This document shows positions 6,088 to 20,342 of a DNA stretch of 20,342 bases, piece after piece (position 1 is the stretch's first letter; each line of letters opens with the position of its first letter). The position numbers and the translations under genes were made by a program. Under the pieces are notes generated by a model. The model was not told the DNA's origin. It made no database searches and worked only from the letters and a program-made list of their open reading frames with translations. This DNA comes from an uncultured bacterium (GTDB lineage Bacteria > Abyssobacteria > SURF-5), in the NCBI GenBank assembly GCA_964510165.1, contig CAZEBC010000015.1, forward strand, positions 18,664 through 39,005. Reading direction: 5' to 3'.

Positions 6088-6138
6088 CGCGTAAACAAGA
6101 GTGTGAATCACGGACAGATTCAAAAGGGGGGTATCCGT

Positions 6139-7896
6139 ATGAAGCGCGTGTTGTTGACCAATCCTTACGGTCCGTACGATCTTCAATGGGGTGAGAATCA
6201 GTTCGACATCCTGAGTTCGCGCTTGCAGCGCGGGCAGGGGCCGTTCTCGCTGAAGTCATACACGCCGTGCCTGGCGTTGTATCTGATTGCGGAGAACCTG
6301 AACGCGCAGAGCACGGTCATGGAATTTCCGCATATCGAGGATTACGTTGAAGAACTCAAGAAGGGCTATGATTACGTCGGCATCCAGGTGATCTCGATGT
6401 CTATCAACAAGGTTGCTCGGATGGTGAAGATCACGAAGGAGGTTGCGCCACGGACCAAGATAGTGATTGGGGGCTACGGGGTGCTCCAGCTTTATGATCC
6501 GCCGCCGGGCGAGAAAAGCGGCGACGGCGAATACATCTTGAAGAACGCGGACCACATCTGCCAGGAAGAGGGCGTTCGGTTCATGCGAAAGCTGCTTGGC
6601 GATGAGCCTGTGGACCGGCCGATAACACAGAAGTATCTTCCGCTGAACGAGAGCCATTTCCCGGGGGCCGAGAGCTTCTCCTATTCGGCCAAGTCGATGG
6701 CGGCAATGGCGCTGGTAGCGCTGGGGTGTCCGAACGGGTGCGAGTTCTGCTGCACATCGGCGATGTTCAAGAAGCAGAAATTCTACGTGGCATCGCCGGA
6801 AGAGACGTTTGGCATACTGAAGCATTACTGTCGCCGCAACGGCGGCCAGGCGACGACCGTTTCGTTGCTGGATGAGGACCTGCTGCTCAACGCGGAGTAT
6901 GTGCGGAGCCTCGGGAAACTGATCCAGCAGGACAGGGAGTATGGGCTTCGTAAGCTGAGCTATTTCTGTTTCAGCGACCTGCGTTCGCTGACGCAGTTCA
7001 GCATGGAGGAACTGCTCGAGTTCGGCGTGGACTCGGTGTGGGTGGGCGTCGAATCGAGCTTCAACGATGTCATCACGTCCTCGCACAAGATAGAGAAGCG
7101 CACGTGCGACGATGTGAAGGCGACGCTGCATGGGCTGGCGCAATACGGAATCGGCACGACAGCCTCGACAGTGCTCGGCTGGGATTTCCACACGAAGGAC
7201 AACATCGTGGAGGATATCGACTACTTTGTCGGCCTGGCGCCGGCGGCGTACCAGATAACATTCCTGACCGCGTGTCCGGGCACCGAGTTATACAAGAGGA
7301 TGAAGGAGACGGGCCGGCTGAACCCGAACCTGACATACCAGGACATTCAGCAATGCAATCCCGGCACGCACAAGCTTGAGAATTTCGAGTTCGGCGAGTT
7401 GAAGCAGTATTTCGATCTTGCGCATAAGAAATTGTACGAGACAAACGGACCGGGCATCTTCCGCAGTTTCCAGATCAATCTCAACGGTTACGAGACGTGC
7501 AAGAATTCGCGCCGTCCTCTCTTGAGAGAGGAGAAGGCGCCGTTCTTTGCCGAGCGATGCCAGAGGACGTATCCGATATTGGAGGCGGTCGCAACGTATG
7601 CGCCCAGCGAGACGGTGCGGGAAAAGGTCCGGGCGGCCGAGGAGAAATATCGCAGTTTGTTCGGCGAGCCCACGGACGCGCAGATGCTGTTCAGCAAGGG
7701 CTTCCTCAATCTTGTGGAGCAACGAATCGAGAAGATGAACGAACCGCGTTCGCTGGAGCCCTTCGACCCTCCGATAAGGCGGATGTATTACAGTCCGGCG
7801 TGGCCGACCCCGAAGGTCAAACACGGGCGCGAGGCTGGCGAGCCGGTTCCCTATGTGATATTTGATGAGGCCGAGCCGGCATCGGCGGCGTGTTAA
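6139..7896 (+). CDS. Cobalamin-binding-domain radical SAM protein
   Basis: 585 aa from ATG at 6139 after an AAAGGGGG RBS; CxxxCxxC motif GCPNGCEFC; N-terminal B12-binding-like segment (YDYVGI...KIVIGGYG); LTACPGTELYKRM motif near the barrel end. Confidence 0.88.
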   Translation: MKRVLLTNPYGPYDLQWGENQFDILSSRLQRGQGPFSLKSYTPCLALYLIAENLNAQSTVMEFPHIEDYVEELKKGYDYVGIQVISMSINKVARMVKITKEVAPRTKIVIGGYGVLQLYDPPPGEKSGDGEYILKNADHICQEEGVRFMRKLLGDEPVDRPITQKYLPLNESHFPGAESFSYSAKSMAAMALVALGCPNGCEFCCTSAMFKKQKFYVASPEETFGILKHYCRRNGGQATTVSLLDEDLLLNAEYVRSLGKLIQQDREYGLRKLSYFCFSDLRSLTQFSMEELLEFGVDSVWVGVESSFNDVITSSHKIEKRTCDDVKATLHGLAQYGIGTTASTVLGWDFHTKDNIVEDIDYFVGLAPAAYQITFLTACPGTELYKRMKETGRLNPNLTYQDIQQCNPGTHKLENFEFGELKQYFDLAHKKLYETNGPGIFRSFQINLNGYETCKNSRRPLLREEKAPFFAERCQRTYPILEAVATYAPSETVREKVRAAEEKYRSLFGEPTDAQMLFSKGFLNLVEQRIEKMNEPRSLEPFDPPIRRMYYSPAWPTPKVKHGREAGEPVPYVIFDEAEPASAAC

Positions 7897-7905
7897 GGCA
7901 GAGAC

Positions 7906-8511
7906 ATGGCGCGAACACGAGCGGCTGAAATCGCGCGAGAGATTACCAGGAGAGAGCTTCTGGGCGCGGCGCTCGCCGTGTTTGTCGAGAAAGGTTATCC
8001 GGCGGCCACGATTTCGGATATCGTTGGGGCCGCCGGCGTGACCCAGGGAACGTTTTACCTCTATTTCAAGAACAAGGCCGACATCTTTTCGGCCATCCTC
8101 CAGGAATATCGGCATCTCATTATCTCGGGCCTGTTCGACGTGGACCTGAATTCGGTCAGGACCGCCGAGGACTGGCTTCGGATGGCAGACCGGATCGCCG
8201 GGTTCATTATCCTCCACATCAAGACGCATGGCGACTTCATACGCCTGTTCATGGCGGAGGCGGCGACCATAGGGTCCGGCTTTCTTGATGAGGCGAATGC
8301 CTTTTCGGCGGGGATCACGCAAGAAATCAGCAGACTCCTCCGCCACGGCATGAACATGAAGCTGCTCCGCGAGATAGATGTGGATGCCGCGGCCGTGGCA
8401 AGTATGGGCGCGCTCAAAGAAGCGATCCACCGGTGCTTCTTCGGGTCGAGAGACCCGCATGACATAATCCCGCGCGTCGTCCGCAGCCAGGCTCAATTGT
8501 TGTTGAAGTGA
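7906..8511 (+). CDS. TetR/AcrR family transcriptional regulator
   Basis: 201 aa; HTH signature AALAVFVEKGYPAATISDIVGAAGVTQGTFYLYFKNKADIF. Confidence 0.95.
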   Translation: MARTRAAEIAREITRRELLGAALAVFVEKGYPAATISDIVGAAGVTQGTFYLYFKNKADIFSAILQEYRHLIISGLFDVDLNSVRTAEDWLRMADRIAGFIILHIKTHGDFIRLFMAEAATIGSGFLDEANAFSAGITQEISRLLRHGMNMKLLREIDVDAAAVASMGALKEAIHRCFFGSRDPHDIIPRVVRSQAQLLLK

Positions 8512-8556
8512 ACTTCTCCACCCCCCTGCCCCGCCGAAACTTCGAAATAAAAACTT

Positions 8557-8578
8557 GCAGGCTGGAAGCCTGCGCTAT
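8557..8578 (-). repeat. Degenerate GTAG-type REP-like hairpin
   Basis: Minus strand atagc-gcaggc-ttcca-gcctgc: 6-bp stem preceded by a near-GTAG tag (ATAG), downstream of tetR. Confidence 0.5.
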
Positions 8579-8757
8579 AGGTTTCGACATAGATCCTTCC
8601 GCTGAGTGCAGTTGACATCTGCAACATACCTGTTGTGAATATCTACAATATAACTCTAAGGTTTTCAGTGTGTTACAAAACTATAGAGAAATGCATCACT
8701 TTTTGGGATTTCTTTGTCAATCTTATCAAGCATGGGGATATCGCAAAACATAAATGT

Positions 8758-8770
8758 TATCAAAGAGTTA
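8758..8770 (+). promoter_or_regulatory. IHF binding site
   Basis: TATCAA-AGAG-TTA matches WATCAANNNNTTR exactly, with AT-rich sequence upstream, about 28 nt before the -24 box. Confidence 0.65.
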
Positions 8771-8797
8771 CGATATGACCTGAAATGGGGCGGCTTC

Positions 8798-8813
8798 TGG
8801 CAGGCATGTTGCA
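8798..8813 (+). promoter_or_regulatory. Sigma54 (RpoN) -24/-12 promoter
   Basis: TGGCAGGCATGTTGCA: GG-N10-GC spacing, one mismatch to TGGCACG-N4-TTGCW, about 57 nt upstream of the 8870 start. Confidence 0.8.
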
Positions 8814-8869
8814 TAAATATTCATCCGACAGCGTAAGGCAAATCCGAATTTCGGAAAAGGAACCAAGTC

Positions 8870-9610
8870 ATGCACCTGCTTCTGGCCATCCTGACATTCG
8901 CGATACTTATTGGTGTGAGTCTCCTGTCTGAGTTTCTCAAGAAACGGACCTTTTCGAAGGCAGCCTTTGAGGCGGCAGTGTTGCCGGATCATTCGATAAG
9001 CGAGGGGATGACGGCTTCTCCGCCGACTATAGCCGTACTTCCTTCGGGCGAAGATGGGCGTCGGGTGGAGGGTTACATCCTCCCTGAATCGCTTTATTAC
9101 CACCAGGGGCATTCGTGGGTTGCTCCCCAGGGGGAGGAAACCGCGCTGGTCGGGATGGACGAATTCGCGTGCAAGCTGATCGGCCGCCCGACCTCGATAG
9201 TTGTTCCTAAGGTGGGCGAAACGTTTCGACAGGGAGAGAAGGGGTGGATGGTCAAGCGAGGGGACAAGGCTGCGAACATGGTGTTTCCGCTTGACGGCAA
9301 GGTGGTCGCGGTAAATGAAGCAGCGCTGAGGCATCCGGAGCTTATGACAAGCGAGCCGTACGGGCGGGGATGGTTGTTTATGGTGAAGACCAGGAGCCTG
9401 AGGTGGAACGTGCGGAATCTTCTCAGGGGCGCGGTCGCGCGGCGGTGGATGGAGGAGTCGGCGGCGGAGCTGAGGGCTTTATTCGACGGAAAGATCGGAT
9501 ATGTGTTTCAGGACGGCGGTTTGCCTGAGGAAGGGGTGGCCGACCGTTTGGGGGCGGCACAATGGCGCGAACTGGCTCGGCGCGTGTTTCTGGTCGAGCC
9601 GAAGGATTAA
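8870..9610 (+). CDS. Membrane-anchored glycine cleavage H-protein-like protein 1 (no canonical lipoyl Lys)
   Basis: 246 aa; N-terminal hydrophobic helix; H-protein motifs LYYHQGHSWV, VGMDEFA, PLDGKVVAVNE, SEPYGRGWLF; C-terminal FQDGG extension. Confidence 0.88.
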   Translation: MHLLLAILTFAILIGVSLLSEFLKKRTFSKAAFEAAVLPDHSISEGMTASPPTIAVLPSGEDGRRVEGYILPESLYYHQGHSWVAPQGEETALVGMDEFACKLIGRPTSIVVPKVGETFRQGEKGWMVKRGDKAANMVFPLDGKVVAVNEAALRHPELMTSEPYGRGWLFMVKTRSLRWNVRNLLRGAVARRWMEESAAELRALFDGKIGYVFQDGGLPEEGVADRLGAAQWRELARRVFLVEPKD

Positions 9611-9642
9611 TACGAGGCTTCTGAACAAAGGAGAATACGAAA

Positions 9643-10374
9643 ATGATTCCGGTAGCCCTGCCATTCGCGATTCTGGTGGTCACGTTCCTGGTCCTTGTTC
9701 TTGTGTCATTGGGGGTTTTGCTGGGATCAAACTACCTGCTTGGATTGATCGGGCTGAGGACGAAGGAGGCGGCTGAAAAGGGAGCGCTCGCCGGACCGGC
9801 CGTGTCTCGGGTCGAGGGTTACAGTCTTCCCGAACACCTGTTCTATCACGCCGGGCACACATGGGTTTGCCCGCAGGGACTGGATATGGCGCTGGTCGGG
9901 GTGGATGAGTTTGCCGGAAAACTGATTGGCCGCCCGACTTTTGTTTCGATCCCGCAAGTAGGACAGCGAGTGATGGAGGGCCAGAGAGGATGGACCTTGC
10001 ATCGAAAGGGAAGAGACCTCGATATCCGGATGCCTATGGATGGAGAGGTCATAGCCCTTAACGAGGAGGCGCTCCGAAATCCCGACCTCCTGGCGAGAGA
10101 CCCGTACGGCAAGGGTTGGCTCGCGATGGTGCGGGTAAGAGACGTGAGGCGGGGTCTGTCGGGCCTGCTCAGCGGCGCGGCTGCGCGTGACTGGATGGAG
10201 CGTTCGGCGGCCGAGCTGCGGTCAATATTCAGCGGCAGATTCGGGCTTGTGTTTCAGGACGGCGGCTTGCCGCAGGAAGACCTGGCCGAGCATGTCGGCG
10301 TGGAAGAATGGGACACGCTTGTGGACCGCTTCTTCCCGAGCGCTTCAAAAAGCATGAAACAAAACGCCCTGTAA
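9643..10374 (+). CDS. Membrane-anchored glycine cleavage H-protein-like protein 2 (no canonical lipoyl Lys)
   Basis: 243 aa; AGGAG RBS; N-terminal TM; LFYHAGHTWV, VGVDEFA, PMDGEVIALNE, DPYGKGWL, FQDGG; clear paralog of the preceding gene. Confidence 0.88.
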   Translation: MIPVALPFAILVVTFLVLVLVSLGVLLGSNYLLGLIGLRTKEAAEKGALAGPAVSRVEGYSLPEHLFYHAGHTWVCPQGLDMALVGVDEFAGKLIGRPTFVSIPQVGQRVMEGQRGWTLHRKGRDLDIRMPMDGEVIALNEEALRNPDLLARDPYGKGWLAMVRVRDVRRGLSGLLSGAAARDWMERSAAELRSIFSGRFGLVFQDGGLPQEDLAEHVGVEEWDTLVDRFFPSASKSMKQNAL

Positions 10375-10406
10375 CAAACAACCTGATGAAAGGAGAGGTA
10401 CACGAG

Positions 10407-11114
10407 ATGGTTCCCGTCGCAATCGCGGGGATAGCGTTGGCGTTCATTGTGGTGGACGTGGCGATCCAGTTCATACAGCACAGGCGCGGCAAGGTGGTGT
10501 ATGGCTTCTTCCTACCGGACCCGCCCGAGGCGCATTCGGCGCAGCCGGCGAATTACGGCAGGATGCTCGAATGTCTGAGAGGGTTCGGCATCGCGCCCGC
10601 GCAGAACGTGTTTGTTCACGCGGGCCACACCTGGGCCGCCATCGAGGAAAGCGGTCAGGCGGCGATTGGCATGGACGCGTTTGCGCGGAATGCGATTGGC
10701 AGGATCAACGAGGTCACACTTCCCCGCGTGGGCCAGAAGGTCCGCCAGGGGGAGCGGCTGTTTTCGGTGCGGCAGGGCGGCCGCATCGCGGAGTTCGTGT
10801 CGCCGATTAACGGCACTGTCACTGCATTGAACGAGTCGCCGAAGAGTCAAAGCGCCGGGTCGGCCTGGCTGTGCAAGGTCAACCCGAGCAACCTCGCCAA
10901 GGATGTCAAGGCTCTTCGGATCGCCGAAAACGCGGTGAAATGGATGTACGGCGAGTTGTTCAGATTGCATGAACTGGTGGCCGGCCAGATACCCAGGCTG
11001 GAGACGGTCGGGGCAACCATGCAGGACGGCGCGGTTGCTCTGGATAATCTGCTCGAGTCTCTCGACGACGACGCCTGGAAGCTTTTCCGAGAACAATTTC
11101 TCCAGAATTCCTGA
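10407..11114 (+). CDS. Membrane-anchored glycine cleavage H-protein-like protein 3 (no canonical lipoyl Lys)
   Basis: 235 aa from ATG at 10407 after AGGAGAGG; N-terminal TM; FVHAGHTWA, IGMDAFA, SPINGTVTALNE, MQDGA; lacks the DPYG segment. Confidence 0.85.
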   Translation: MVPVAIAGIALAFIVVDVAIQFIQHRRGKVVYGFFLPDPPEAHSAQPANYGRMLECLRGFGIAPAQNVFVHAGHTWAAIEESGQAAIGMDAFARNAIGRINEVTLPRVGQKVRQGERLFSVRQGGRIAEFVSPINGTVTALNESPKSQSAGSAWLCKVNPSNLAKDVKALRIAENAVKWMYGELFRLHELVAGQIPRLETVGATMQDGAVALDNLLESLDDDAWKLFREQFLQNS

Positions 11115-11132
11115 TCCATCGGAGGTACAAGA

Positions 11133-11942
11133 ATGAGCAAGGGAATGTTGATAGATACTACCATGTGCATCGGGTGCCTGTCGTGTGAAGTGGCGTGCTC
11201 CGAGAAGAACCAGTTGGGAGAGTGCGACGAGTCGGACCTGTCGGCATGCAAGTTCACGAAGGTGTTCGAGCGGGGCGATTATTATGTCAGAAAGATGTGC
11301 ATGCATTGCAAAGAGCCGGCGTGCGCATCGGTGTGTCCCGTCGGCGCGCTGACCAAGCTGGAGGAAGGCCCGGTCATTTACGATGAGAAGAAATGCATCG
11401 GATGCAGGTACTGCATGCAGGCGTGCCCCTTCCAGATACCTACGTATGAATGGGCCAGCGCGCTTCCGCGCGTGAGGAAATGCTGGTTCTGTTATGACCG
11501 CGTGCTTGTAGGCGAGCAGCCGGCCTGCGCCGAGGTCTGCCCGACCGGCGCGACCATGTTCGGGGACCGCGCCTCGCTGCTGGTCGAGGCCAGGAGGAGA
11601 ATCAAAGAAAACCCGGGCCAATACCATGACCACATCTTTGGGGAGCGCGAGGTGGGAGGCACCTCGATGTTATTCCTCTCGGCCGTCCCGTTTGACCAAA
11701 TCGGTTTCAAGTCGAACCTTATCGAGAAGCCGCTGCCGCTTCTCACCTGGAACGTGCTTTCGAAGATACCCGATTTCGTGCTGGTGGGCGGCACGCTGCT
11801 CGGAGGGGTGGCGTGGGTGATCAACCGCCGCATGCAGCTTGAGGACGAGAGGATACGCGAGGCCGAGGAGCGCCGGATGAACGGCCTTGAGCCTCCGAAG
11901 AAAGGGTTGGCGCGCTTGTTTGAGCGGATCAGGAAAGGTTAA
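11133..11942 (+). CDS. HybA/FdnH/HmcB-like 4x[4Fe-4S] electron-transfer subunit with C-terminal TM helix
   Basis: 269 aa; four Cys groups CIGCLSCEVAC, CMHCKEPACASVC, CIGCRYCMQAC, CWFC...PACAEVC; HIFGEREVGGTS motif; C-terminal hydrophobic helix; GGAGG RBS. Confidence 0.92.
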   Translation: MSKGMLIDTTMCIGCLSCEVACSEKNQLGECDESDLSACKFTKVFERGDYYVRKMCMHCKEPACASVCPVGALTKLEEGPVIYDEKKCIGCRYCMQACPFQIPTYEWASALPRVRKCWFCYDRVLVGEQPACAEVCPTGATMFGDRASLLVEARRRIKENPGQYHDHIFGEREVGGTSMLFLSAVPFDQIGFKSNLIEKPLPLLTWNVLSKIPDFVLVGGTLLGGVAWVINRRMQLEDERIREAEERRMNGLEPPKKGLARLFERIRKG

Positions 11943-11944
11943 TC

Positions 11945-13192
11945 ATGGCTCTGCCGATGGCCATCAAGAATAGAAAGGTTGACGCAATGAACCGAAAATG
12001 GATTCCCAAGATAACGTTCTGGAGAGTTGTCTTCGCAATGATCTTCGTGATGGGACTCTATGTGACGTACATCAGGCTTTTCAAGGGACTTGGCGCATCG
12101 ACCGCGCTGAGCGACAAATTCCCGTGGGGGCTGTGGGTTGGATTCGACGTGTTGTGTGGAGTCGGCCTGGCGGCGGGCGGCTTCACGATAACATTGGCCG
12201 TGCATGTATTCAACCTGAAGAAATACAAGCCGATCCTTCCCTCGACGGTGCTGAGCGCGTTTCTGGGTTATAATCTTGTGAGCGCGGGACTCATGTACGA
12301 CATCGGGAGGCCGTACCGGATATGGCATCCGCTGATTTTCTGGAACCATCATTCGGTGATGTTCGAGGTTGCGTGGTGCGTGATGCTGTATACGAGTGTG
12401 CTCGCGCTGGAGTTCAGCCCGATGGTGTTGAAAAGGCTGAACTGGGAAAAGCCGCTCCGGATAGTGAAGGCGATTACGATCCCACTGGTGATTGTGGGCT
12501 TTATCCTTTCGACACTGCACCAGTCATCGCTCGGGACGGTGTTTCTCATCGCTCCCGGCAGGCTGCATCAATTGTGGTATACTCCGATTCTGCCGCTGAT
12601 GTTCTTCACGTCGGCGATTGCGGCGGGTCTCTCGATGGTGATTGTCGAGTCCTACCTGAGCCGGCGCGCGTTTCAGAAGCGGCTTGAGTTGGACCTTCTT
12701 AGCGGGGTGGGGCGCGCACTCGTGGTGGCGCTCGCAGTGTACCTCGTTCTGAAGTTGAAGGACTTATACAATAGGGATGCATTCGGGCTGCTGTTCAACG
12801 GCAGCCATGAGAGCGGAATGTTTCTGGTCGAACTGGGTCTCGGAGTCGCGGCGCCTTTGGGGCTCCTGGCCACTCGGCGCGTTCGCGAGAGCCAGGCCGG
12901 CCTGTTCATCTCGGCGCTGATGGTTGCGCTCGGGTTTGTTGTCAACCGGCTCAACGTGAGCATTACCGGCATGATGCGCTCGTCAGGAGTCGTCTATTTC
13001 CCGTCGTGGATGGAGATAGGGGTCACCATGTTCCTGGTGGCGATGGGATTTGCGTTCTTCGCGCTTGCGGTGAAATATCTGCCGATCTTCCCCGAGGAAA
13101 AGGCGACCGAGGAGCCGGCGGCGGAAACCCTGAGGTATCTGGCCCCCGCACGCCGGGCCGCGGGTGACGAGGGCGAGCTTCAGGCGTCGTAG
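11945..13192 (+). CDS. hybB: NrfD/PsrC-family integral membrane subunit, HybB/HmcC-like
   Basis: 415 aa; LSDKFPWGLWVGFDVLCGVGLAAGGF, DIGRPYRIWHP, SVMFEVAWCV, LSTLHQSSLG, NRLNVSITG, YFPSWME. The symbol reflects family similarity only; no hydrogenase subunits are adjacent. Start may be 11987. Confidence 0.88.
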   Translation: MALPMAIKNRKVDAMNRKWIPKITFWRVVFAMIFVMGLYVTYIRLFKGLGASTALSDKFPWGLWVGFDVLCGVGLAAGGFTITLAVHVFNLKKYKPILPSTVLSAFLGYNLVSAGLMYDIGRPYRIWHPLIFWNHHSVMFEVAWCVMLYTSVLALEFSPMVLKRLNWEKPLRIVKAITIPLVIVGFILSTLHQSSLGTVFLIAPGRLHQLWYTPILPLMFFTSAIAAGLSMVIVESYLSRRAFQKRLELDLLSGVGRALVVALAVYLVLKLKDLYNRDAFGLLFNGSHESGMFLVELGLGVAAPLGLLATRRVRESQAGLFISALMVALGFVVNRLNVSITGMMRSSGVVYFPSWMEIGVTMFLVAMGFAFFALAVKYLPIFPEEKATEEPAAETLRYLAPARRAAGDEGELQAS

Positions 13193-13229
13193 GGCGGTTA
13201 TGTGGAGCGTCAATAGCACCGAATTCACC

Positions 13230-13309
13230 CCCCTCACCCTGCCCTCTCCCACTGGGAAAGGTAAACACGAGTACGCCCTCTCCCGCTGGGAGAGGGTTGG
13301 GGTGAGGGA
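13230..13309 (-). repeat. BoxC-like composite palindromic element, copy 2 (inverted relative to copy 1)
   Basis: Reverse complement aligns to 2221-2301 with about 9 differences by manual alignment. Confidence 0.85.
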
Positions 13310-13345
13310 CAAGAACACGATAAAACGAAGAAATACAGAACTTGC

Positions 13346-13374
13346 TTGACCAGCGGCAATTTATTTATTAGAAT
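13346..13374 (+). promoter_or_regulatory. Sigma70 promoter for the kinase-cytochrome-qrc unit
   Basis: TTGACC-17 nt-TAGAAT in an AT-rich stretch. Confidence 0.55.
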
Positions 13375-13488
13375 AATGATAGGATTCCTTCTCGGTTGGG
13401 GGTCGAGGCCGGGAGATCCTATCCCTCTTTGCTTACACCCCATAGTATAATGGTGTACAAGCCTGTTCCGCCCCAATAGGCCAAGACG

Positions 13489-15138
13489 GTGAACCCAGTC
13501 AAGAGATTGTTCAGCGTTTCCAGCAGTTTGGCGGTCAAGCTCATCATGTGTGTGGTGGGCAGCGTCGTGATCATATTCGGGGTGTTCGGCTACATCAACA
13601 TAGAGAACAGCCGGGAACACCTCGAGGGTCTGGTGCTGACGAGCGCACAGGGTGTCGGCGACATCGTCAAGAGGAGCACCCGGCTCTCGATGCTGAAGAA
13701 CCGTCGTGATGAACTCTATCATATGATCAACCAGATAGGAAACGAGCCGGGCATACACAAGATCCGGATTCTGAATAAAGAGGGCAAGATCACGTTCTCG
13801 ACGGACGAGGCCGAAGTGAACACGTATGTGGACAAGAAGGGTGAAGCCTGCTATGCGTGTCATACGCGGCAGCAGCCGCTGGAGAAGCTTTCCCGTCCCG
13901 ACCGCGCAAGGATATACAGGGTGAATGGCGAGCGGTTGCTTGGGCTTATCCAGCCGATCGAGAACGAACCGGACTGCTATACGGCTCCCTGTCACGTGCA
14001 TCCGGAGTCCAAGACGGTGCTCGGGGTTTTCGACATCAATCTTTCGCTCGCGAAGGTGGACGAGAGCATCGGCGAGTATCAGCGGAATTACGTGATGAAC
14101 CTGCTCGTCGTGATGGTCGCCGTCTCGATTGTTTCGGCGGCGTTCGTGTGGCTGATGATTTACGGGCCAGTCAAGAAGCTGATCACGGGCACCAAGCGAA
14201 TCGCGATGGGCGACATGGATTACCGGATCGACACGAAATCGTCGGACGAACTGGGATTGCTGGCCGTTTCCTTCAACAAGATGACGAGCGATCTGAAGAA
14301 GGCGCAGGACGAAATCACGGAATGGACGAAAACGCTTGAAGACCGCGTGGCCCACAAGACCGAGGAGCTGCAGAAAGCCAACGATCTGATACTCCAGGCG
14401 GAGAAGCTGGCGTCGGTGGGAAGGCTGGCGGCGGTAGTGGCGCACGAACTGAACAACCCGCTCGCGGGAATCGTCGCGTACTCCAAGCTGCTGCTCAAAC
14501 GGATGGACAGAAACAGCTTTTCGGAGAACGGATATGAGAAGAGCAGGGAAATCACTTCGATGATCATGAGCGAGGCGCTTCGCTGCGGCGAGATCGTAAA
14601 GAACCTGCTTCAGTTCTCGCGGCAGTCAGACGTGGTGCTTGCGCCAAACGATATCTGCGCCATCATCCGTGATTCGACCCGGCTGATTGAACACCTGGTG
14701 ACCCTCCGGAGCATAGACCTGCAGCTTGACCTTGACGAGGGAATACCGCTTGTGCACTGCGACGCTCAAAAGATCAAGCAGGTCTTGCTCGCGCTGCTCA
14801 TAAACGCCTGTGATGCGATAGCGGACGAGGGTCTGCTCAGGATCGGCTGCCGCCGTCTGGCGTCCTCGAACGGCGTGGAAATCACGGTACAGGACAACGG
14901 GGTTGGGATGGACGAAGACACGATGCGGCATATCTTCGAGCCGTTCTTCACGACGAAGGAAGAAGGCAGCGGAGTGGGCCTGGGCCTTTCCGTCGCCCAC
15001 TCGATAATCAAGCGGCACGGCGGCACGATATCGGTTCGAAGCACCGTGAATGAAGGCGCCGCGTTCACGATTCTGCTGCCGGTGACTCCGCGCGTGTTCA
15101 ATGACGAGATGCCGACAAAGGAGCATGTGAGCTTCTGA
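13489..15138 (+). CDS. HAMP-domain sensor histidine kinase with periplasmic c-type heme motifs
   Basis: 549 aa, GTG start; two TM helices around a sensor domain with CYACH and CYTAPCH; HAMP (DELGLLAVSFNKM); H-box AHELNNPL; N, G1 (DNGVGM), F (FEPFFTTK) and G2 (GVGLGLS) boxes. Confidence 0.93.
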   Translation: MNPVKRLFSVSSSLAVKLIMCVVGSVVIIFGVFGYINIENSREHLEGLVLTSAQGVGDIVKRSTRLSMLKNRRDELYHMINQIGNEPGIHKIRILNKEGKITFSTDEAEVNTYVDKKGEACYACHTRQQPLEKLSRPDRARIYRVNGERLLGLIQPIENEPDCYTAPCHVHPESKTVLGVFDINLSLAKVDESIGEYQRNYVMNLLVVMVAVSIVSAAFVWLMIYGPVKKLITGTKRIAMGDMDYRIDTKSSDELGLLAVSFNKMTSDLKKAQDEITEWTKTLEDRVAHKTEELQKANDLILQAEKLASVGRLAAVVAHELNNPLAGIVAYSKLLLKRMDRNSFSENGYEKSREITSMIMSEALRCGEIVKNLLQFSRQSDVVLAPNDICAIIRDSTRLIEHLVTLRSIDLQLDLDEGIPLVHCDAQKIKQVLLALLINACDAIADEGLLRIGCRRLASSNGVEITVQDNGVGMDEDTMRHIFEPFFTTKEEGSGVGLGLSVAHSIIKRHGGTISVRSTVNEGAAFTILLPVTPRVFNDEMPTKEHVSF

Positions 15139-15139
15139 T

Positions 15140-16522
15140 ATGAAGTGCGCTGATAGAAAAACCAAGGGGGCAAATCGTGTGCGAATGAATTCGGGCCTAA
15201 AAAACGGCAAGCCGGCAAAGACTGTAATCGCGTGTGTGATGCTGTTGCTGGTCTCGGCGGGCGTATGGGCGTCCGAACAGGCGGTGGACAACCAGGCGTG
15301 CATTGATTGTCACGGGGACAAGAGAAAAGTCAGCAAGCAGTTCAGCTTCATCGATCCGGCGGTCATCTCCGAGTCGGTACATGCCGAGACGCTGTGCATG
15401 GATTGTCATTCCGACGCGAAGCTGACCGAGGCGGATGAGCAGGGAATCCCGCACAGGAAGGATTTGGGCGAGGTCAACTGCTCTCAGTGTCATTACAGAG
15501 GAAATGGCGAGGGCGCTCCCAATTTCAGCCCGATGCAGGAATACAAGACGAGCGTCCACGGGCGCGCCTCGCTGGAGCGGGGGGACCGCGACGTAGCGAC
15601 GTGTTCCGCGTGCCACGGCAAGCATAACATCAGGCCAGCGTCGGACCCGCAGTCCACTATCTATCGCGCCAATATCCCGAGCACGTGCGCGGTGTGCCAC
15701 GACAACATGCAGATGATCCTCAAGCACAATATCCACGCGGAGCAGCCGTACAGGGAATATGAGCAGAGCGTACATGGAAAGGCGCTGTTCAAGGACGGCC
15801 TTGTGACGCTGGCGGCGGTGTGCACCGATTGTCACGGCGTGCACGACATCCAGCCGAACGGGTCCGAGGACCTCAAGCCGCATCAGCCGGGCACGTGCGG
15901 CAGGTGCCATCTGGAAGAGTACAACGCGTACAGCCGGAGCATTCACGGAACCGCTTTCAAGGATGGAATAATGGATGCGCCTTCATGCTCAGACTGTCAC
16001 GGCGAGCATAAGATCGCCGCTCCGTGGAACCCCGATTCCAGCGTTTCGGCGCTGCACGTGGCAAACACGTGCGCGGGCTGTCATGACGACCTTACCAAGA
16101 TGAGCAAGTACAACATCCTGACCAACAAGGTGTCCACGTACAGGAAAAGCGACCACGGCGTGAGCAAAGACCTCGGCATCGTGTCGGTGGCCACGTGCGT
16201 GAGCTGTCATGGGTATCACGTGATACTGCCGGCCAACGACCCGCGCTCCTCGATCCACCCAGTGAATCTGGCGAAGACGTGCGGAGAGCCCATCTGTCAT
16301 CCGGGCGCGCCAAAGGAGCTGTTGCAGTCCAAGATTCATGTGGACACTGCCACTGCCGATTTCAAGAACCTGCAGCGCATACGAACCGTCGCGATCTGGT
16401 CGCTTGCAGCGATGGCGGCGATGGCGGTCGTCACGGGCGTGGGGCTTTTCGTCTCGCGCGTGGGGAAGTGCTTTTTCGGAGCTGCATCCAACGGGAGCGC
16501 GGACGATTCGGAGAATGAATGA
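15140..16522 (+). CDS. Multiheme cytochrome c (10 CxxCH + 1 CX4CH), signal peptide and C-terminal TM anchor
   Basis: CIDCH, CMDCH, CSQCH, CSACH, CAVCH, CTDCH, CGRCH, CSDCH, CAGCH, CVSCH and CGEPICH; repeated Y..S.HG modules; signal peptide ending VWA. True start may be 15179 or 15185. Confidence 0.92.
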   Translation: MKCADRKTKGANRVRMNSGLKNGKPAKTVIACVMLLLVSAGVWASEQAVDNQACIDCHGDKRKVSKQFSFIDPAVISESVHAETLCMDCHSDAKLTEADEQGIPHRKDLGEVNCSQCHYRGNGEGAPNFSPMQEYKTSVHGRASLERGDRDVATCSACHGKHNIRPASDPQSTIYRANIPSTCAVCHDNMQMILKHNIHAEQPYREYEQSVHGKALFKDGLVTLAAVCTDCHGVHDIQPNGSEDLKPHQPGTCGRCHLEEYNAYSRSIHGTAFKDGIMDAPSCSDCHGEHKIAAPWNPDSSVSALHVANTCAGCHDDLTKMSKYNILTNKVSTYRKSDHGVSKDLGIVSVATCVSCHGYHVILPANDPRSSIHPVNLAKTCGEPICHPGAPKELLQSKIHVDTATADFKNLQRIRTVAIWSLAAMAAMAVVTGVGLFVSRVGKCFFGAASNGSADDSENE

Positions 16523-16558
16523 CGGGCAAGCGGAGCCGCAAGGGAAAGCACGAGGCAA

Positions 16559-17194
16559 ATGAGCACATTGCAGAAGCGTAAAAACTCAGCGCAGGCGCTG
16601 GCCATCTTCCTGGCCGGATTCGTCGTCTTTCATATCACCGGACGCACGGTGGTGCCCGCGCTGATGCACACTAAGAGCAGGCAGCCGGTGGAATTCAGCC
16701 ATATGATACATGGAAGGGACGTCGGGATATCGTGCGAGACGTGCCACTTCTTTTACGAGGATGGCAGTTGGTCGGGAATTCCGACGCTCGAGGTCTGTTC
16801 CAACTGCCATGCCGAGGTATTGGGGGAATCGGAGGCCGAACAGCATTTCGTGACGAACTACATCAAGGAGAACAAGGACGTGAAATGGGGCCTCTATTTC
16901 CGGCAACCCCAATGCGTTTCCTTCTCGCATTCATCGCATGTGAAAGGCGCCAAGCTCGCATGTGAGACCTGCCACGGACCGCAGGGCCTCTCCGGGCGTG
17001 AGACGCGGTATCTGACCAATCGAATTACGCAGTACAGTTACGTCATCTACGATGGGGAGACCTCGAATAATCCCGGTCCCAAGGGCGCCGCGAAGACTGA
17101 GAAGAAGACATGGGGAACCATGGGAATGGACGAGTGCGCGCAATGTCATCGGGCCAGAGGGACAAGCACCGCGTGTTTCATATGTCACAAGTAG
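16559..17194 (+). CDS. qrcA: Quinone reductase complex multiheme cytochrome c subunit (QrcA/ActA-like, 5 hemes)
   Basis: 211 aa; N-terminal TM, QPVEFSH, five CxxCH (CETCH, CSNCH, CETCH, CAQCH, CFICHK at the C-terminus), QPQCVSFSH; followed by qrcB- and qrcC-like genes. Confidence 0.88.
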   Translation: MSTLQKRKNSAQALAIFLAGFVVFHITGRTVVPALMHTKSRQPVEFSHMIHGRDVGISCETCHFFYEDGSWSGIPTLEVCSNCHAEVLGESEAEQHFVTNYIKENKDVKWGLYFRQPQCVSFSHSSHVKGAKLACETCHGPQGLSGRETRYLTNRITQYSYVIYDGETSNNPGPKGAAKTEKKTWGTMGMDECAQCHRARGTSTACFICHK

Positions 17195-17242
17195 GGGCGT
17201 CCCTGTGTGGGCGCCCGGGCGGCCACGCAGGGCCGTCCCTAC
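17191..17242. repeat. Inverted dimer of GTAG-tagged REP sequences (REPIN-like)
   Basis: GTAGGGGCGTCCCTGTGTGGGCGCCC (17191-17216) followed directly by the reverse complement of GTAGGGACGGCCCTGCGTGGCCGCCC (17217-17242). Confidence 0.85.
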
Positions 17243-17283
17243 AACAAAAAGGCGAATTGGCGACACCAGGAGAAGGGTCATAA

Positions 17284-19665
17284 ATGAAGGTTGATAGAAG
17301 GCAATTCATCAGAGCGCTGACATTCGCCGGAGGCGGAGCGCTCGGCTTTATGACATCGCCCGCCCCCTGGCATCTGGTCAGAGACCTTGCCAGGTGGACC
17401 CAGAACTGGCCATGGGTTCCCGTGCCGCCTCATGGCAAGCCGTCGCATCTCAACGGCATCTGCGGGATGTGCGACGGCGGATGCGGGGTTACCGTACGAA
17501 AAGTGGATGACCGACTGGTGGGAATCGAAGGCAACAAGAAGCATCCGGTCAACCGCGGCCTGATGTGCCCGCACGGCACTGCGGGTTTGCAGATGGTCTA
17601 TGGGCCTTCCCGCGTGAGAGAACCGCTGAAACGCACGGGCACGAAGCAGGAGCCGAAGTGGGAACCGGTCACCTGGGAGCAGGCCATCAACGAGGTGATC
17701 GGCAAGATACGGGGACTCCGCTCGGGAGCGAAATCACATGCGCTTGCCTGCATCACGAACAACTGCGATAGCACTGTCAATCTGCTTCTTGAACGGTTTC
17801 TGCAGGCGGTCGGATCGCGCAACTTCATGAAGATGAATTCCGGCAGAGACGCCCGCGACGTTGTGGCGCGGCTCATGCAGGGGACGGGCGGGAATCTGGC
17901 GTACGATTTTGAGAGGACAAATCTGATACTCAGCTTCGGTTGTTCGCTTCTCGATGGATGGGGCTCCTGCACGAGGATGCTCGGCGCATATACGGGATGG
18001 ACGACCGGAGCCGATGAAAGTCGGACGCAGATAATTCAATTCGAGCCGAATCTCTCCGTCACCGCCACAAAGGCGTCCCAGTGGGTTCCGATTAAGCCCG
18101 GTTCGGAAGGCGCCCTGGCGCTCGGATTGGCCCATGTCCTCATAAGGGACGGGCTTTACGATGGGGAGTTCGTCAGCGAGTATTGCTTCGGATTTGAAGA
18201 TTGGACGGATAAGGACGGAACGAGGCGAAAGGGATTCAAGTCCCTCGTGCTCGCCGATTACTCGCCTTTGGCCGTTGAGAAGATGACGGCGGTGGAGGCC
18301 CACCAGATCGAGAAGCTGGCGAAAGAGTTCGCGGCGCACAGGCCTTCGCTGGCAGTCGCGGGAGGCGGCACGGGCGAACTGTTCAACGACCTGTATGAGT
18401 TGATGGCGATTCACAGCCTGAATGCGCTGGTTGGAAACCTCAACAAGCCGGGCGGGGTGTTCATCAAACCCGATCCGCCGCTGACGCCGTTGCCGCCCGT
18501 CATAATGGACGAGGAGGCCGAGCGCGGGTTCGCGGTCGGAAGGGCGGACGGAGCCGGGAGCGAAGCTTATCCATTTTCGCCGTATTTGCCGTGCAATCTG
18601 AATCCAGATGAGATCGAGGTTCTTCTCGTGCATGAGGTGAATCCGCGTTACTCACTTCCCGACAGCGAGACGGCGAATAAGATATTCGAGCGTGTACCTT
18701 ATATAGTGAGCTTCTCCTCGTACATGGACGAGAGCGCGGCAATGGCCGACCTTGTGCTTCCGATACCGACGCGTTACGAGAGATGGGACGATCAGATTGC
18801 CTCGCCCGAATCGCCGTTCCCGGTTTACAATCTCACTCGACCGCTCGCGGAGCCGGTCTACCAGACGAAACCGGCGGGCGAAATCATTATCCAGATGGCC
18901 GGCCGGTTGGGCGGCTCAATTGGCGAATCGTTCCCGTGGGCCGACATGCAGGAACTGCTCAAAGTTCGGGCAAGGGGACTCTATGAATCTGGCCGGGGAG
19001 TGATTGACACGTCGGAGGCTCTCGTGGCGACGGACAGGAGACCGCCACCCGTGATGACATACAGCTCATTCGTCGCGATGTGGGAGAAACTCGTCGAGAA
19101 CAATTGCTGGTTCGATCCGAACCCGGAGTATGCAGACCTCAAGAGGGAGATAGCGACGCCAAGCCGCAGATTCGAGTTTTATAGCAGGCGACTGAAGGAA
19201 GCGTTCGGGTTCCAGAACGATGTTGACTGCATGCCGCATTACGTTGGGCCGCCGGCCAATCCGGAGGGGTTTGACCTTCTGATCATGCCCGAGGTCATGC
19301 TCGTCGTTGCCGATGATGGAAAGCCCACGCCGCCGTTCCTTATGAAACAGATAGACGACGATGTGCTCGAGAGAGACAGGCTGTTCGTGCAGATCAATCC
19401 GATAACTGCGATGTACAGGGGCCTAAAGGACGGCGACGACGTCATCGTGGAGACCCCCCGCGGAAAAGTGAAGGCGGGTCTGCGCACGTTCGAGGGCGTG
19501 CGCGAAGGCGTGGTGTTGATACCGCTCGGTTTCGGCCACACGGCGTATGATGAATTTCTGCGGGGCAAAGGAGTCAATGCGCATGACATCCTCGAGGCGA
19601 GGAAGGACAGGCTCAGCGGATTGCCGGTCTGGTGGTCAACGCCCGGCAAATTAAGCAAGGCATGA
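17284..19665 (+). CDS. qrcB: Quinone reductase complex molybdopterin-oxidoreductase-like subunit (QrcB)
   Basis: 793 aa; Tat motif DRRQFI; QrcB-typical SPAPW...RWTQNWPWVP; CGMCDGGC...C motif; DMSO-reductase-family motifs PIKPGSEGALALGLAHVLI, ESAAMADLVLP, GFGH. Confidence 0.88.
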   Translation: MKVDRRQFIRALTFAGGGALGFMTSPAPWHLVRDLARWTQNWPWVPVPPHGKPSHLNGICGMCDGGCGVTVRKVDDRLVGIEGNKKHPVNRGLMCPHGTAGLQMVYGPSRVREPLKRTGTKQEPKWEPVTWEQAINEVIGKIRGLRSGAKSHALACITNNCDSTVNLLLERFLQAVGSRNFMKMNSGRDARDVVARLMQGTGGNLAYDFERTNLILSFGCSLLDGWGSCTRMLGAYTGWTTGADESRTQIIQFEPNLSVTATKASQWVPIKPGSEGALALGLAHVLIRDGLYDGEFVSEYCFGFEDWTDKDGTRRKGFKSLVLADYSPLAVEKMTAVEAHQIEKLAKEFAAHRPSLAVAGGGTGELFNDLYELMAIHSLNALVGNLNKPGGVFIKPDPPLTPLPPVIMDEEAERGFAVGRADGAGSEAYPFSPYLPCNLNPDEIEVLLVHEVNPRYSLPDSETANKIFERVPYIVSFSSYMDESAAMADLVLPIPTRYERWDDQIASPESPFPVYNLTRPLAEPVYQTKPAGEIIIQMAGRLGGSIGESFPWADMQELLKVRARGLYESGRGVIDTSEALVATDRRPPPVMTYSSFVAMWEKLVENNCWFDPNPEYADLKREIATPSRRFEFYSRRLKEAFGFQNDVDCMPHYVGPPANPEGFDLLIMPEVMLVVADDGKPTPPFLMKQIDDDVLERDRLFVQINPITAMYRGLKDGDDVIVETPRGKVKAGLRTFEGVREGVVLIPLGFGHTAYDEFLRGKGVNAHDILEARKDRLSGLPVWWSTPGKLSKA

Positions 19666-19672
19666 GGAGCGT

Positions 19673-20342
19673 ATGGAGAAGTCTGACCGAGTGAAGCCGA
19701 TTCGTTACGGCATGGTGATAGATGTGGACAAGTGCACCGGCTGCGGGAACTGCGCGGTGGCGTGTCATATGGAGAACAATGTCGCCGTCATGAAGGACGA
19801 GAGCGACAAGTCGCGCAACATGGCTTGGCTCCGCGTGTACAAGGTGACTAATGGAGCGCCCTATCCAAACGTGCGCATGGCCTACTTCGCGCGGCCGTGC
19901 ATGCAGTGCGACCGTCACACGCCGTGCGTGTCGGTGTGTCCCGCCAGCGCGACCAACTATGACAAGGAAACCGGCCTCGTGGACCAGATAAACACCCGCT
20001 GCATCGGATGCCGGTATTGCATGGCGGCGTGTCCGTATATGGTTCGGTGCTTCAACTGGTGGGACCCGGTGTGGCCCGGCGACATGGAAAAGTATCTGAA
20101 TCCTGATGTCGCCCCCCGCATGCGAGGGGTGGTGGAGAAGTGCACGTTTTGCTCGCATAGATACATCAAGGCGAAAAACCTCGCGCATCAGGAAGGCCGC
20201 AGCGTTCTGAGGAAAGGGGAATACGTGCCGGCATGCGTCGAGGCGTGTCCGGTAGGCGCAATGCACTTCGGCGATCTGAATGACCCGGAATATGAAGTGC
20301 ACGCCCTGGCGAAGGGGCCCCGCGCATTCAGGCTGCTCGAGA
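19673..20342 (+). CDS. qrcC: Quinone reductase complex iron-sulfur subunit (QrcC), truncated by the right window edge
   Basis: Manual translation from ATG 19673 (GAGGAG RBS): RYGMVIDVDKCTGCGNCAVACHMENN, RPCMQC..TPCVSVCP, RCIGCRYCMAACPY..RCFNWWDPVWP, PRMRGVVEKCTFC, PACVEACP. Confidence 0.92.
   Translation, partial: MEKSDRVKPIRYGMVIDVDKCTGCGNCAVACHMENNVAVMKDESDKSRNMAWLRVYKVTNGAPYPNVRMAYFARPCMQCDRHTPCVSVCPASATNYDKETGLVDQINTRCIGCRYCMAACPYMVRCFNWWDPVWPGDMEKYLNPDVAPRMRGVVEKCTFCSHRYIKAKNLAHQEGRSVLRKGEYVPACVEACPVGAMHFGDLNDPEYEVHALAKGPRAFRLLE

Follow-up and report, generated by a model that had tools for sequence, protein, structure and literature searches.

The DNA analysed here, referred to throughout as the window, is a stretch of 20,342 nucleotides from the genome of an uncultured bacterium (G000:C15:18664-39005; contig C15 ends at 40689, 327 bases past qrcD). 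Ten co-oriented open reading frames (ORFs) run on its + strand from position 8870 to the window end, and Pfam and NCBIfam profile scans of the window ORFs, with bit scores judged against the NCBIfam equivalog cut-offs, recovered all ten genes listed in an earlier note on this DNA: three GcvH-like genes, an iron-sulfur (FeS) protein gene, a gene for an NrfD-family quinone subunit, a sensor histidine kinase gene, a multihaem cytochrome c gene, and qrcA, qrcB and qrcC. The qrcD gene, which the note had expected just past the window edge, lies there (C15:39136-40362; 602 bits, cut-off 570), which gives the locus the two NrfD-type quinone subunits that had been anticipated, the first one and QrcD; the locus holds no catalytic substrate-oxidising subunit, as had also been said. 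These genes fall into two units. The first is a widespread, undescribed and self-regulated membrane electron-transfer cassette that is defined by synteny, and the second, separate from this cassette, comprises qrcABCD, a conserved 68-aa membrane ORF and an 8-haem c554-like cytochrome.

The cassette opens with a GcvH-like protein of 246 aa (8870..9610; GCV_H E 4.6e-20) made up of a membrane helix, a linker, an H-protein fold and a helical C-terminal extension, followed by a second GcvH-like protein of 243 aa (9643..10374; GCV_H E 2.7e-17) that is 49% identical to the first and a third (10386..11114; GCV_H E 3.2e-15) that is 31% identical to the first. The longest ORF of the third gene starts at 10308; given that gene 2 ends at 10374, and given the position of the membrane helix, its likely start is 10386 or 10407. 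Next come an HmcB/HybA-like FeS protein of 269 aa with four [4Fe-4S] clusters (11133..11942), which has a C-terminal membrane helix and no twin-arginine translocation (Tat) signal, and the NrfD-family subunit of 415 aa (11945..13192; NrfD E 2.7e-27), with 10 predicted helices and both termini inside. The FeS protein reaches 250.2 bits with HmcB (cut-off 420; match from profile position 36) and 200.5 bits with HybA (cut-off 263; from position 40), and the NrfD subunit reaches 327.6 bits with HmcC (cut-off 550), 291 with HybB (cut-off 450) and 150 with QrcD. The pair, labelled hybA-like and hybB-like in the earlier note, is slightly closer to hmcBC, with neither cut-off reached. The sensor histidine kinase (13489..15138; 549 aa) has two membrane helices around a periplasmic PDC/PAS-like domain, followed by HAMP-HisKA-HATPase domains detected with Pfam, and 1 nt past its stop begins the gene of an 11-haem cytochrome c of 460 aa (15140..16522) with a signal peptide and a C-terminal membrane helix.

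The second unit begins with QrcA, a pentahaem cytochrome c with five CXXCH motifs (16559..17194; NF041781, 192.4 bits, cut-off 180), and continues with the molybdopterin-like QrcB (17284..19665; NF041783, 459.5 bits, cut-off 440), which bears the N-terminal twin-arginine signal RRQF, and the FeS protein QrcC (19673..20342; NF041782), which is cut at the window end and scores 350.7 bits over 223 aa (cut-off 400); the 84%-identical QrcC orthologue of genome G010 scores 388.9 bits at the same cut-off of 400. By family, the Qrc genes of the window are predicted to encode a cytochrome c3:menaquinone oxidoreductase. The QrcABCD complex of Desulfovibrio vulgaris is described as a type I cytochrome c3:menaquinone oxidoreductase (PMC6303296; PMC8076601), and within the genome set of the second of these papers QrcD is reported only from Deltaproteobacteria. 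The framing of the locus as one of Desulfobacterota is wrong, because its closest relatives are Ca. Abyssubacteria: the closest proteins, at 82% identity, come from this lineage, a related locus found in our scan belongs to Ca. Abyssobacteria SURF_17, and the host is a relative of Abyssubacteria and not a member of Desulfobacterota. A second full qrcABCD is present in the source genome on contig C26, and two qrcD copies occur in 7 of the 11 genomes of the phylum that we compared. Right after qrcD lies the 68-aa ORF with one hydrophobic helix (G000:C15:40394-40600), which has no NCBIfam match and which tblastn located after qrcD in 9/9 other qrc loci tested, of both paralogue types, at 45-73% identity; this ORF may be an unrecognised fifth Qrc subunit.

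Comparison of the phylum genomes places the boundary between the two units. The order GcvH-like-FeS-NrfD-kinase-cytochrome is kept in all five genomes of the family that have enough contig (G010, G004, G007, G008 and G009), and the contig of G005 stops after NrfD. The kinase and the cytochrome belong, on this order, with the GcvH-like, FeS and NrfD genes, and not to a second half starting at 13.2-13.4 kb, which is where the earlier note had divided the locus. In G007, G008 and G009 a sigma-54 response regulator of 450 aa and an archaemetzincin gene stand directly after the cytochrome gene; in G010 the cytochrome gene is followed by qrcABCD, then by the 8-haem c554-like cytochrome and then by the same sigma-54 regulator, and in G004 qrcABCD likewise comes after the cytochrome. 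The true seam is therefore between the 11-haem cytochrome and qrcA, and the Qrc unit is nested between cytochrome and regulator in at most three genera, represented by the source genome, G010 and G004, which have their highest protein identities among themselves. Inspection of the sequence downstream, as the note had advised, recovered qrcD; the regulator was beyond reach on this contig because C15 ends so soon after qrcD, and a regulator gene stands at the start of another. Contig C107 of the source genome opens with a c554-like cytochrome (74% identical to the reference), the regulator (77.5%) and the archaemetzincin (77%), and the source genome therefore likely shares the G010 order across C15-C107, as judged from synteny.

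The two units also occur apart. The window-type qrcD copy, always found with the c554-like cytochrome, is located on contigs apart from the cassette in G007, G008 and G009, and Qrc is absent around the cassette in G007 and G008 (about 9-13 kb on the regulator side; upstream in G007 there is little or nothing, as the contig ends). In G009, the cassette is preceded, at a distance of about 500 bp, by the end of a unit of the other qrc paralogue, in which qrc is accompanied by additional ORFs, a 14-haem cytochrome gene and the gene of a PAS kinase; the qrcD of this unit is about 7.6 kb distant from the cassette. G002 lacks the cassette and carries a window-type qrcABCD beside the same radical SAM and TetR genes as precede the window cassette. 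In the window, these two, a B12-binding radical SAM gene and a TetR gene, occupy 6103-8511 ahead of the cassette; the TetR gene precedes the cassette in G010 too, and the radical SAM gene adjoins qrcA in G009. These flanks hint at how the composite locus was built. The cytochrome-qrcA junction itself is bridged by contigs from three public sequencing runs of three studies (X1, 15881-20342; X2, 14388-16671; X3, 15962-17013), one of which may be the source sample, and for this reason the juxtaposition is not a one-off mis-assembly.

Outside the phylum the cassette is found on its own. A pattern scan with the GcvH-like alignment returned 80 loci, of which 49 (L039-L087) have the long, C-terminally extended form, the 31 with ordinary GcvH being dropped. 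All ORFs of the 49 loci were compared with the window proteins by BLAST, with the regulator counted at an identity of at least 40%; as many loci are cut by contig ends, absences are lower bounds. NrfD is present in 36 of the 49 loci, FeS together with NrfD in 32, the kinase in 38, a kinase with CXXCH in 31, the sigma-54 regulator in 33, archaemetzincin in 31 and a cytochrome with at least three haems in 17. Qrc occurs in one of the 49, an Abyssobacteria record, and in none of the 46 cassette loci outside the phylum. Adjacency of NrfD and kinase recurs in other phyla, and the carriers include Acidobacteriota, Bacteroidota, Myxococcota (Anaeromyxobacter), Thermodesulfobacteriota/Desulfobacterota groups, Planctomycetia, Calditrichaceae, Ignavibacteriota and Krumholzibacteriia. 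A literature search, with subscription journals mostly outside its coverage, found no paper on the cassette, on GcvH with NrfD or on archaemetzincin with sigma-54, and none that joins QrcABCD, dsrAB and candidate phyla.

Two promoter-like elements suggest how the locus may be regulated. Ahead of the cassette, on the + strand, lie an imperfect palindrome (TGCAACA-N4-TGTTGTG, 8620..8637), a candidate enhancer site for a sigma-54 activator, and a sigma-54 (-24/-12) promoter-like element (TGGCAG-N5-TTGCA, 8798..8813) that stands at 56 nt from the first GcvH-like ATG. When the regions upstream of the family loci are aligned, they share an element related to the palindrome, of the type TGCAACA/TGTTGCA, and the GG-N10-GC core of the promoter-like element aligns in six of six of them. 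The element at 8798 was the only match with one mismatch in a consensus scan of the window, a scan that gave 7 matches against 9.4 expected, a count not above chance; it is position and conservation alone that single this site out. A similar scan of the 49 loci, allowing at most one mismatch, was patchy, partly because crude ORF starts overrun promoters, and we claim no count outside the family. Near-consensus sigma-54 sequence was also seen on contig C26, about 96 nt upstream of the second qrcA (15371), as TGGCACAGTTCTTGCC in G000:C26, and a similar element precedes qrcA in G007.

The gap between NrfD and the kinase holds the repeat and the promoter that the earlier note had reported at 13.2-13.4 kb, both of which were recovered. 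The repeat is a palindrome (13231..13309; core CCCTCTCCC...GGGAGAGGG) with a predicted hairpin of -62 kcal/mol, and since its core is found 113 times in the source genome it is best described as resembling repetitive extragenic palindromic (REP) elements. Word depth at the repeat rises 30- to 40-fold in run X1, 50- to 80-fold in X3 and about 10- to 15-fold in X2, and no Logan contig bridges 13261-13309, the public contigs breaking inside the repeat. The promoter-like site (TTGACC-17-TAGAAT, 13346..13374, + strand), a consensus match at 10/12 positions ahead of the kinase gene, is the only sigma-70-like site found on the + strand in 8400-20342. From the kinase to qrcC the genes are separated by 1, 36, 89 and 7 nt, and neither a promoter-like site on the + strand nor an intergenic terminator-like site was found between them. 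Because qrcA follows the cytochrome gene at 36 nt and is without a promoter-like site of its own, its expression would depend on the kinase operon. It is likely, as far as promoter motifs and gene order allow, that a sigma-70-type sensor operon (kinase, cytochrome and Qrc, leading to the regulator) controls a sigma-54 target operon (three GcvH-like genes, FeS and NrfD).

Given these observations, we favor a reading in which the locus encodes two quinone modules that are not joined in one complex and whose link lies in their regulation and in the quinone and cytochrome pools that they share, and we give this reading a probability of roughly one in two. Another account is that respiratory genes cluster, that qrc entered the regulatory operon once and that it has been carried along since without a functional link. 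The three nested genomes, which resemble each other most in their proteins, may represent one such event; the lack of Qrc in all cassette loci outside the phylum, the local reshuffling suggested by the shared radical SAM-TetR flanks of the window cassette and the cassette-free qrc of G002, and the sigma-54-like promoters that stand-alone qrc operons carry for themselves are all consistent with it. We nevertheless regard passive co-location as doubtful. Pure chance, which the earlier note had raised as a juxtaposition of halves never adjacent in related genomes, is argued against by the persistence of the nesting in three genera, by the missing promoter-like site of the window qrcA, so close behind the cytochrome gene, and by the second, independent proximity of the other qrc paralogue to the G009 cassette.

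A further account, put forward in the earlier note, joins the cassette FeS-NrfD pair, the 11-haem cytochrome and QrcABCD in a single assembly resembling alternative complex III (ACIII), or in a relay between two quinone sites that the cytochrome would bridge. To our knowledge, no complex other than ACIII contains two NrfD-like subunits. In ACIII these are ActC and ActF, and it is considered related to Qrc (PMC8076601), which lends this idea some appeal, as do the nesting of qrc directly behind a membrane-anchored cytochrome in three genera, the bridging of that junction by contigs from three studies, and the different qrc unit so near the G009 cassette. The two NrfD genes, however, are under different promoter elements, Qrc is missing from all 46 cassette loci outside the phylum and from the stretches examined around the G007 and G008 cassettes, and QrcB and QrcC are separate, with no ActB-like fusion. 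An obligatory ACIII-like assembly is unlikely given that the cassette mostly occurs without Qrc and that Qrc also occurs without the cassette, both in G002 and as second copies in seven genomes, the complete C26 operon of the source genome among them; we hold the assembly and the relay alike to be highly improbable.

The orientation of the FeS-NrfD pair bears on a further alternative. The FeS ORF opens with its first cluster motif, and an in-frame stop at 11112-11114 prevents any extension upstream. Among the FeS homologues of the cassettes a Tat signal of the RRxF(L) type is present in 13 of 31 and lacking in 18, and it is lacking in all seven family members. It can therefore be proposed that the Tat-less FeS protein lies on the cytoplasmic side, like SoeB on SoeC, so that the module would oxidise menaquinol and pass electrons inward with the GcvH-fold proteins as docking partners, and would, together with Qrc, open a route from periplasm to quinone to cytoplasm that feeds sulfate reduction. 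SoeABC is a cytoplasm-facing complex. It is counted among the NrfD-type complexes (PMC8076601). The scarcity of cytochromes in Tat-less cassettes keeps this cytoplasm-facing arrangement alive, since a cytochrome with at least three haems occurs in 1 of 11 Tat-less and 9 of 13 Tat-bearing cassettes outside the family, related loci that do not count as independent. The GcvH-fold domains are likewise predicted to be cytoplasmic, and the genome, with dsrA, aprA and dsrMKJOP, needs cytoplasmic electrons.

The topology signals of the pair itself point the other way, and we judge the inward route unlikely. In the window NrfD, the two termini and the even loops together carry 24 lysine and arginine residues and the odd loops 9, and the bias is alike in Tat-bearing and Tat-less classes (14 against 4 in locus L062); the invariant NrfD residues fall in predicted periplasmic loops in all 29 sequences. 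An Arg/Lys-rich tail follows the C-terminal helix of the FeS protein in both Tat classes, which places the FeS domain outside. On contig C25 of the source genome, moreover, an Hmc-like operon (G000:C25:2897-7752; L134) encodes DsrK/HmcF-like and TmcC/HmcE-like proteins, a Tat-less HmcB-like FeS protein and an HmcC-like NrfD protein of 649 aa that is fused to a C-terminal hexahaem cytochrome domain, so that a periplasmic FeS domain would be expected there as well. By these signals the FeS domain of the window is predicted to be periplasmic, though without a visible export route. An orphan catalytic subunit with a Tat signal was considered as its carrier, and no candidate was found: the molybdopterin homologues on C129, C119 and C2 are without Tat, and among the proteins examined the motif was seen only in QrcB and in a 967-aa QrcB-like ORF on C16. 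A read-through fusion of the third GcvH-like protein with the FeS protein was rejected as well, since the two share a frame in the window but not in G010.

Although the three GcvH-like proteins have the fold of the glycine cleavage H protein, they lack its canonical lipoyl lysine. The AlphaFold 2 model of protein 1 (pLDDT 86.6) has a transmembrane helix at residues 2-31, a disordered linker, an H-protein fold at 64-181 and two additional C-terminal helices at 187-240, and it superimposes on 1onl with a TM-score of 0.93 (normalised to 1onl) and a root mean square deviation of 1.5 A at 31% identity. The GcvH equivalog scores of the three proteins (80, 76.5 and 52.4 bits) are all below the cut-off of 117. 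The position of the lipoyl-lysine is Asp132 in protein 1, with a lysine at +1, and glycine in proteins 2 and 3, with arginine at +1; in the GcvH-like family as a whole, the canonical column holds lysine in only 4 of 95 members. An N-terminal hydrophobic helix is found in 92 of these 95, and the mean number of lysine plus arginine residues is 0.33 before this helix and 3.1 after it (more after it in 83 members, equal in 9, fewer in none). This Arg/Lys excess would put the GcvH-fold domain in the cytoplasm, and the proteins should accordingly be membrane-anchored and cytoplasm-facing. The Protein Atlas returned the same GCV_H family and nothing else. Elsewhere in the source genome (G000:C8:28196-36545; L038), the genes that come after dsrMKJOP are a protein-kinase-like gene, one for a haem-motif kinase that is a paralogue of the window kinase (29% identity over 538 aa) and one for a receiver::GCV_H fusion of 261 aa, without the lipoyl lysine, which 8 of the 11 phylum genomes retain. 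The position of this fusion beside dsrMKJOP ties the GcvH fold to signalling and to NrfD-type complexes.

The periplasmic part of the window kinase carries the motifs CYACH and CYTAPCH, and in the aligned cassette kinases, which include the paralogue beside dsrMKJOP, CXXCH is found in 29 of 29 and CX4CHxH in 26 of 29. Its sensor region has no family match in Pfam and no match by sequence to a solved structure. The AlphaFold 2 model (pLDDT 80.4) has a PDC/PAS-like domain between two long helices, and this fold matches WalK, KinD and the Geobacter haem-c sensors GSU0935 and GSU0582 (PDB 3b42 and 3b47; Foldseek E 7.5e-5 and 3.8e-3). The protein is well supported, as a prediction from motifs and model, as a haem sensor kinase, possibly with two haems. 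The cytochrome encoded next to the kinase keeps ten CXXCH motifs, one CX4CH and the C-terminal hydrophobic segment in six of six family orthologues, and a sequence search found no relative of it among solved structures. Two tandem paralogues of this 11-haem cytochrome (48% and 39% identity by tblastn) lie on contig C22 (G000:C22:4565-6903).

The source genome, which is 97% complete, was checked for the genes of sulfate reduction, as had been proposed, and dsrA and aprA, as well as all of dsrMKJOP, score above their cut-offs. The dsrA matches stand at two places on C8 (G000:C8:7853-9007 and 22141-23295), with identical scores of 567.2 bits and a dsrB-like match after each; the pair is a true duplication or else a repeat produced by the assembly. 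For this lineage, the description of 2018 reports sat and aprAB but not dsrAB, and it makes no mention of Qrc (PMC6121073). No match to the [NiFe] hydrogenase large subunit (PF00374) was found in this genome. Contig C16 carries a candidate ACIII, in which the 967-aa Tat-signal ORF is followed by one of 445 aa, with weak BLAST similarity to QrcA/QrcB and to the FeS protein; its candidacy comes only from the ORF sizes, the Tat motif and this weak similarity.

Under the reading of two separate modules that we prefer, Qrc and its cytochromes would pass electrons from periplasmic cytochromes c to menaquinone, and the kinase would read the periplasmic redox state via its haem or haems, perhaps through the co-translated 11-haem cytochrome. 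The phosphorylated regulator would then fire the sigma-54 promoter and thereby add a second FeS-NrfD module, similar to the Hmc/Nhc core, that could exchange electrons between the quinone pool and periplasmic cytochromes. The GcvH-fold proteins would sit on the cytoplasmic face of this module as non-catalytic structural or regulatory subunits, and the two NrfD modules would communicate through the quinone and cytochrome pools and not as one assembly.

Several points weigh against this reading. Co-transcription and the target of the regulator are both deduced from the DNA alone, and the join of C15 and C107 comes from synteny, as the contig ends do not overlap. No regulator was seen past qrcD in G004 within the stretch examined, and the source genome, G010 and G004 seem, from their protein identities, to form one clade, so that their nesting may go back to one rearrangement. 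For the FeS protein, which has no Tat signal, no known export route leads to its predicted periplasmic site. In 6 of the 49 loci the GcvH-like genes are accompanied by regulator and archaemetzincin with no NrfD nearby, which suggests that the GcvH-fold proteins may not be NrfD subunits at all. Finally, if the cytochrome pools were equal in potential, reduction of menaquinone by Qrc and its re-oxidation by the second module could amount to a futile cycle.

NrfD-type modules are a common membrane link of anaerobic respiration, of which the regulation and the cytoplasmic partners are poorly known. The cassette unites such a module with cofactor-less H-protein folds, a haem sensor kinase, a sigma-54 switch and a protease across many phyla, and the Abyssubacteria version ties it genetically to the well-studied Qrc and so offers an entry point to what the cassette senses and does. 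The lineage also proves to hold a full dsr/apr/qrc gene set for sulfate reduction, where the first described genomes reportedly had no dsrAB (PMC6121073), and the FeS subunits present a puzzle in that they are without Tat while their partner subunits and anchors predict the periplasm. Taken together, it can be speculated, tentatively and with considerable doubt, that lipoate-less GcvH-fold proteins, membrane-tethered here and receiver-fused beside dsrMKJOP, are cytoplasmic control subunits of NrfD-type proton-coupled quinone modules, and that in Abyssubacteria a dihaem kinase wired into the Qrc/multihaem chain senses the redox pressure of the periplasm and turns on a second quinone module that acts as a valve; or else that an inward-facing Tat-less FeS protein and Qrc form a previously unknown periplasm-to-cytoplasm route for sulfate reduction.

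Among known systems, the GcvH-like proteins share the barrel-sandwich fold of the glycine cleavage H protein (1onl), from which they differ in their membrane anchor, in a helical C-terminal extension of about 60 residues and in having no gcvT or gcvP nearby. The kinase has the PDC/PAS-like fold class and the CXXCH motif in common with GSU0935 and GSU0582; in contrast to these, it has a second conserved motif, CX4CHxH, and its output is a HAMP kinase and not a chemoreceptor, haem binding being predicted in the window protein.

The Hmc complex of Desulfovibrio and its reduced forms Nhc and Ohc have a core of HmcB/HmcC-type composition. NhcC is listed as one of the NrfD-like families (PMC8076601). 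The locus resembles this core in its four-cluster FeS protein with a C-terminal anchor, its 10-helix NrfD, its multihaem cytochrome c and its lack of a catalytic subunit, and HmcB and HmcC are the best NCBIfam matches, yet far below the cut-offs. It differs from it in that the FeS protein has no Tat signal, that HmcE and HmcF are missing and three GcvH-fold membrane proteins are present instead, that the cytochrome gene is in the regulatory operon of the kinase, behind a separate promoter-like site, and that the cassette brings its own haem kinase, sigma-54 regulator and archaemetzincin. Measured against HybA-HybB of E. coli hydrogenase-2, both scores are below the cut-offs and the source genome has no PF00374 protein. 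With ACIII (ActABCDEF) the locus shares the Qrc-related architecture, but its two NrfD genes are in different predicted transcription units and have different phyletic distributions, there is no ActB-type fusion, and the source genome holds its separate candidate ACIII on C16.

The second unit resembles the Qrc of D. vulgaris, with four genes in identical order, of which QrcA, QrcB and QrcD are above the equivalog cut-offs, and with no evident catalytic substrate site. In Desulfovibrio QrcB has a Tat signal and QrcC has none, and the window proteins follow the same pattern. In contrast to D. vulgaris, the host is related to Abyssubacteria and has two paralogous operons and no [NiFe] hydrogenase large subunit found, and the window copy has no promoter-like site to itself, sits within a two-component operon, where it comes after the gene of an 11-haem cytochrome, and is trailed by the conserved 68-aa membrane ORF and probably by the 8-haem cytochrome.

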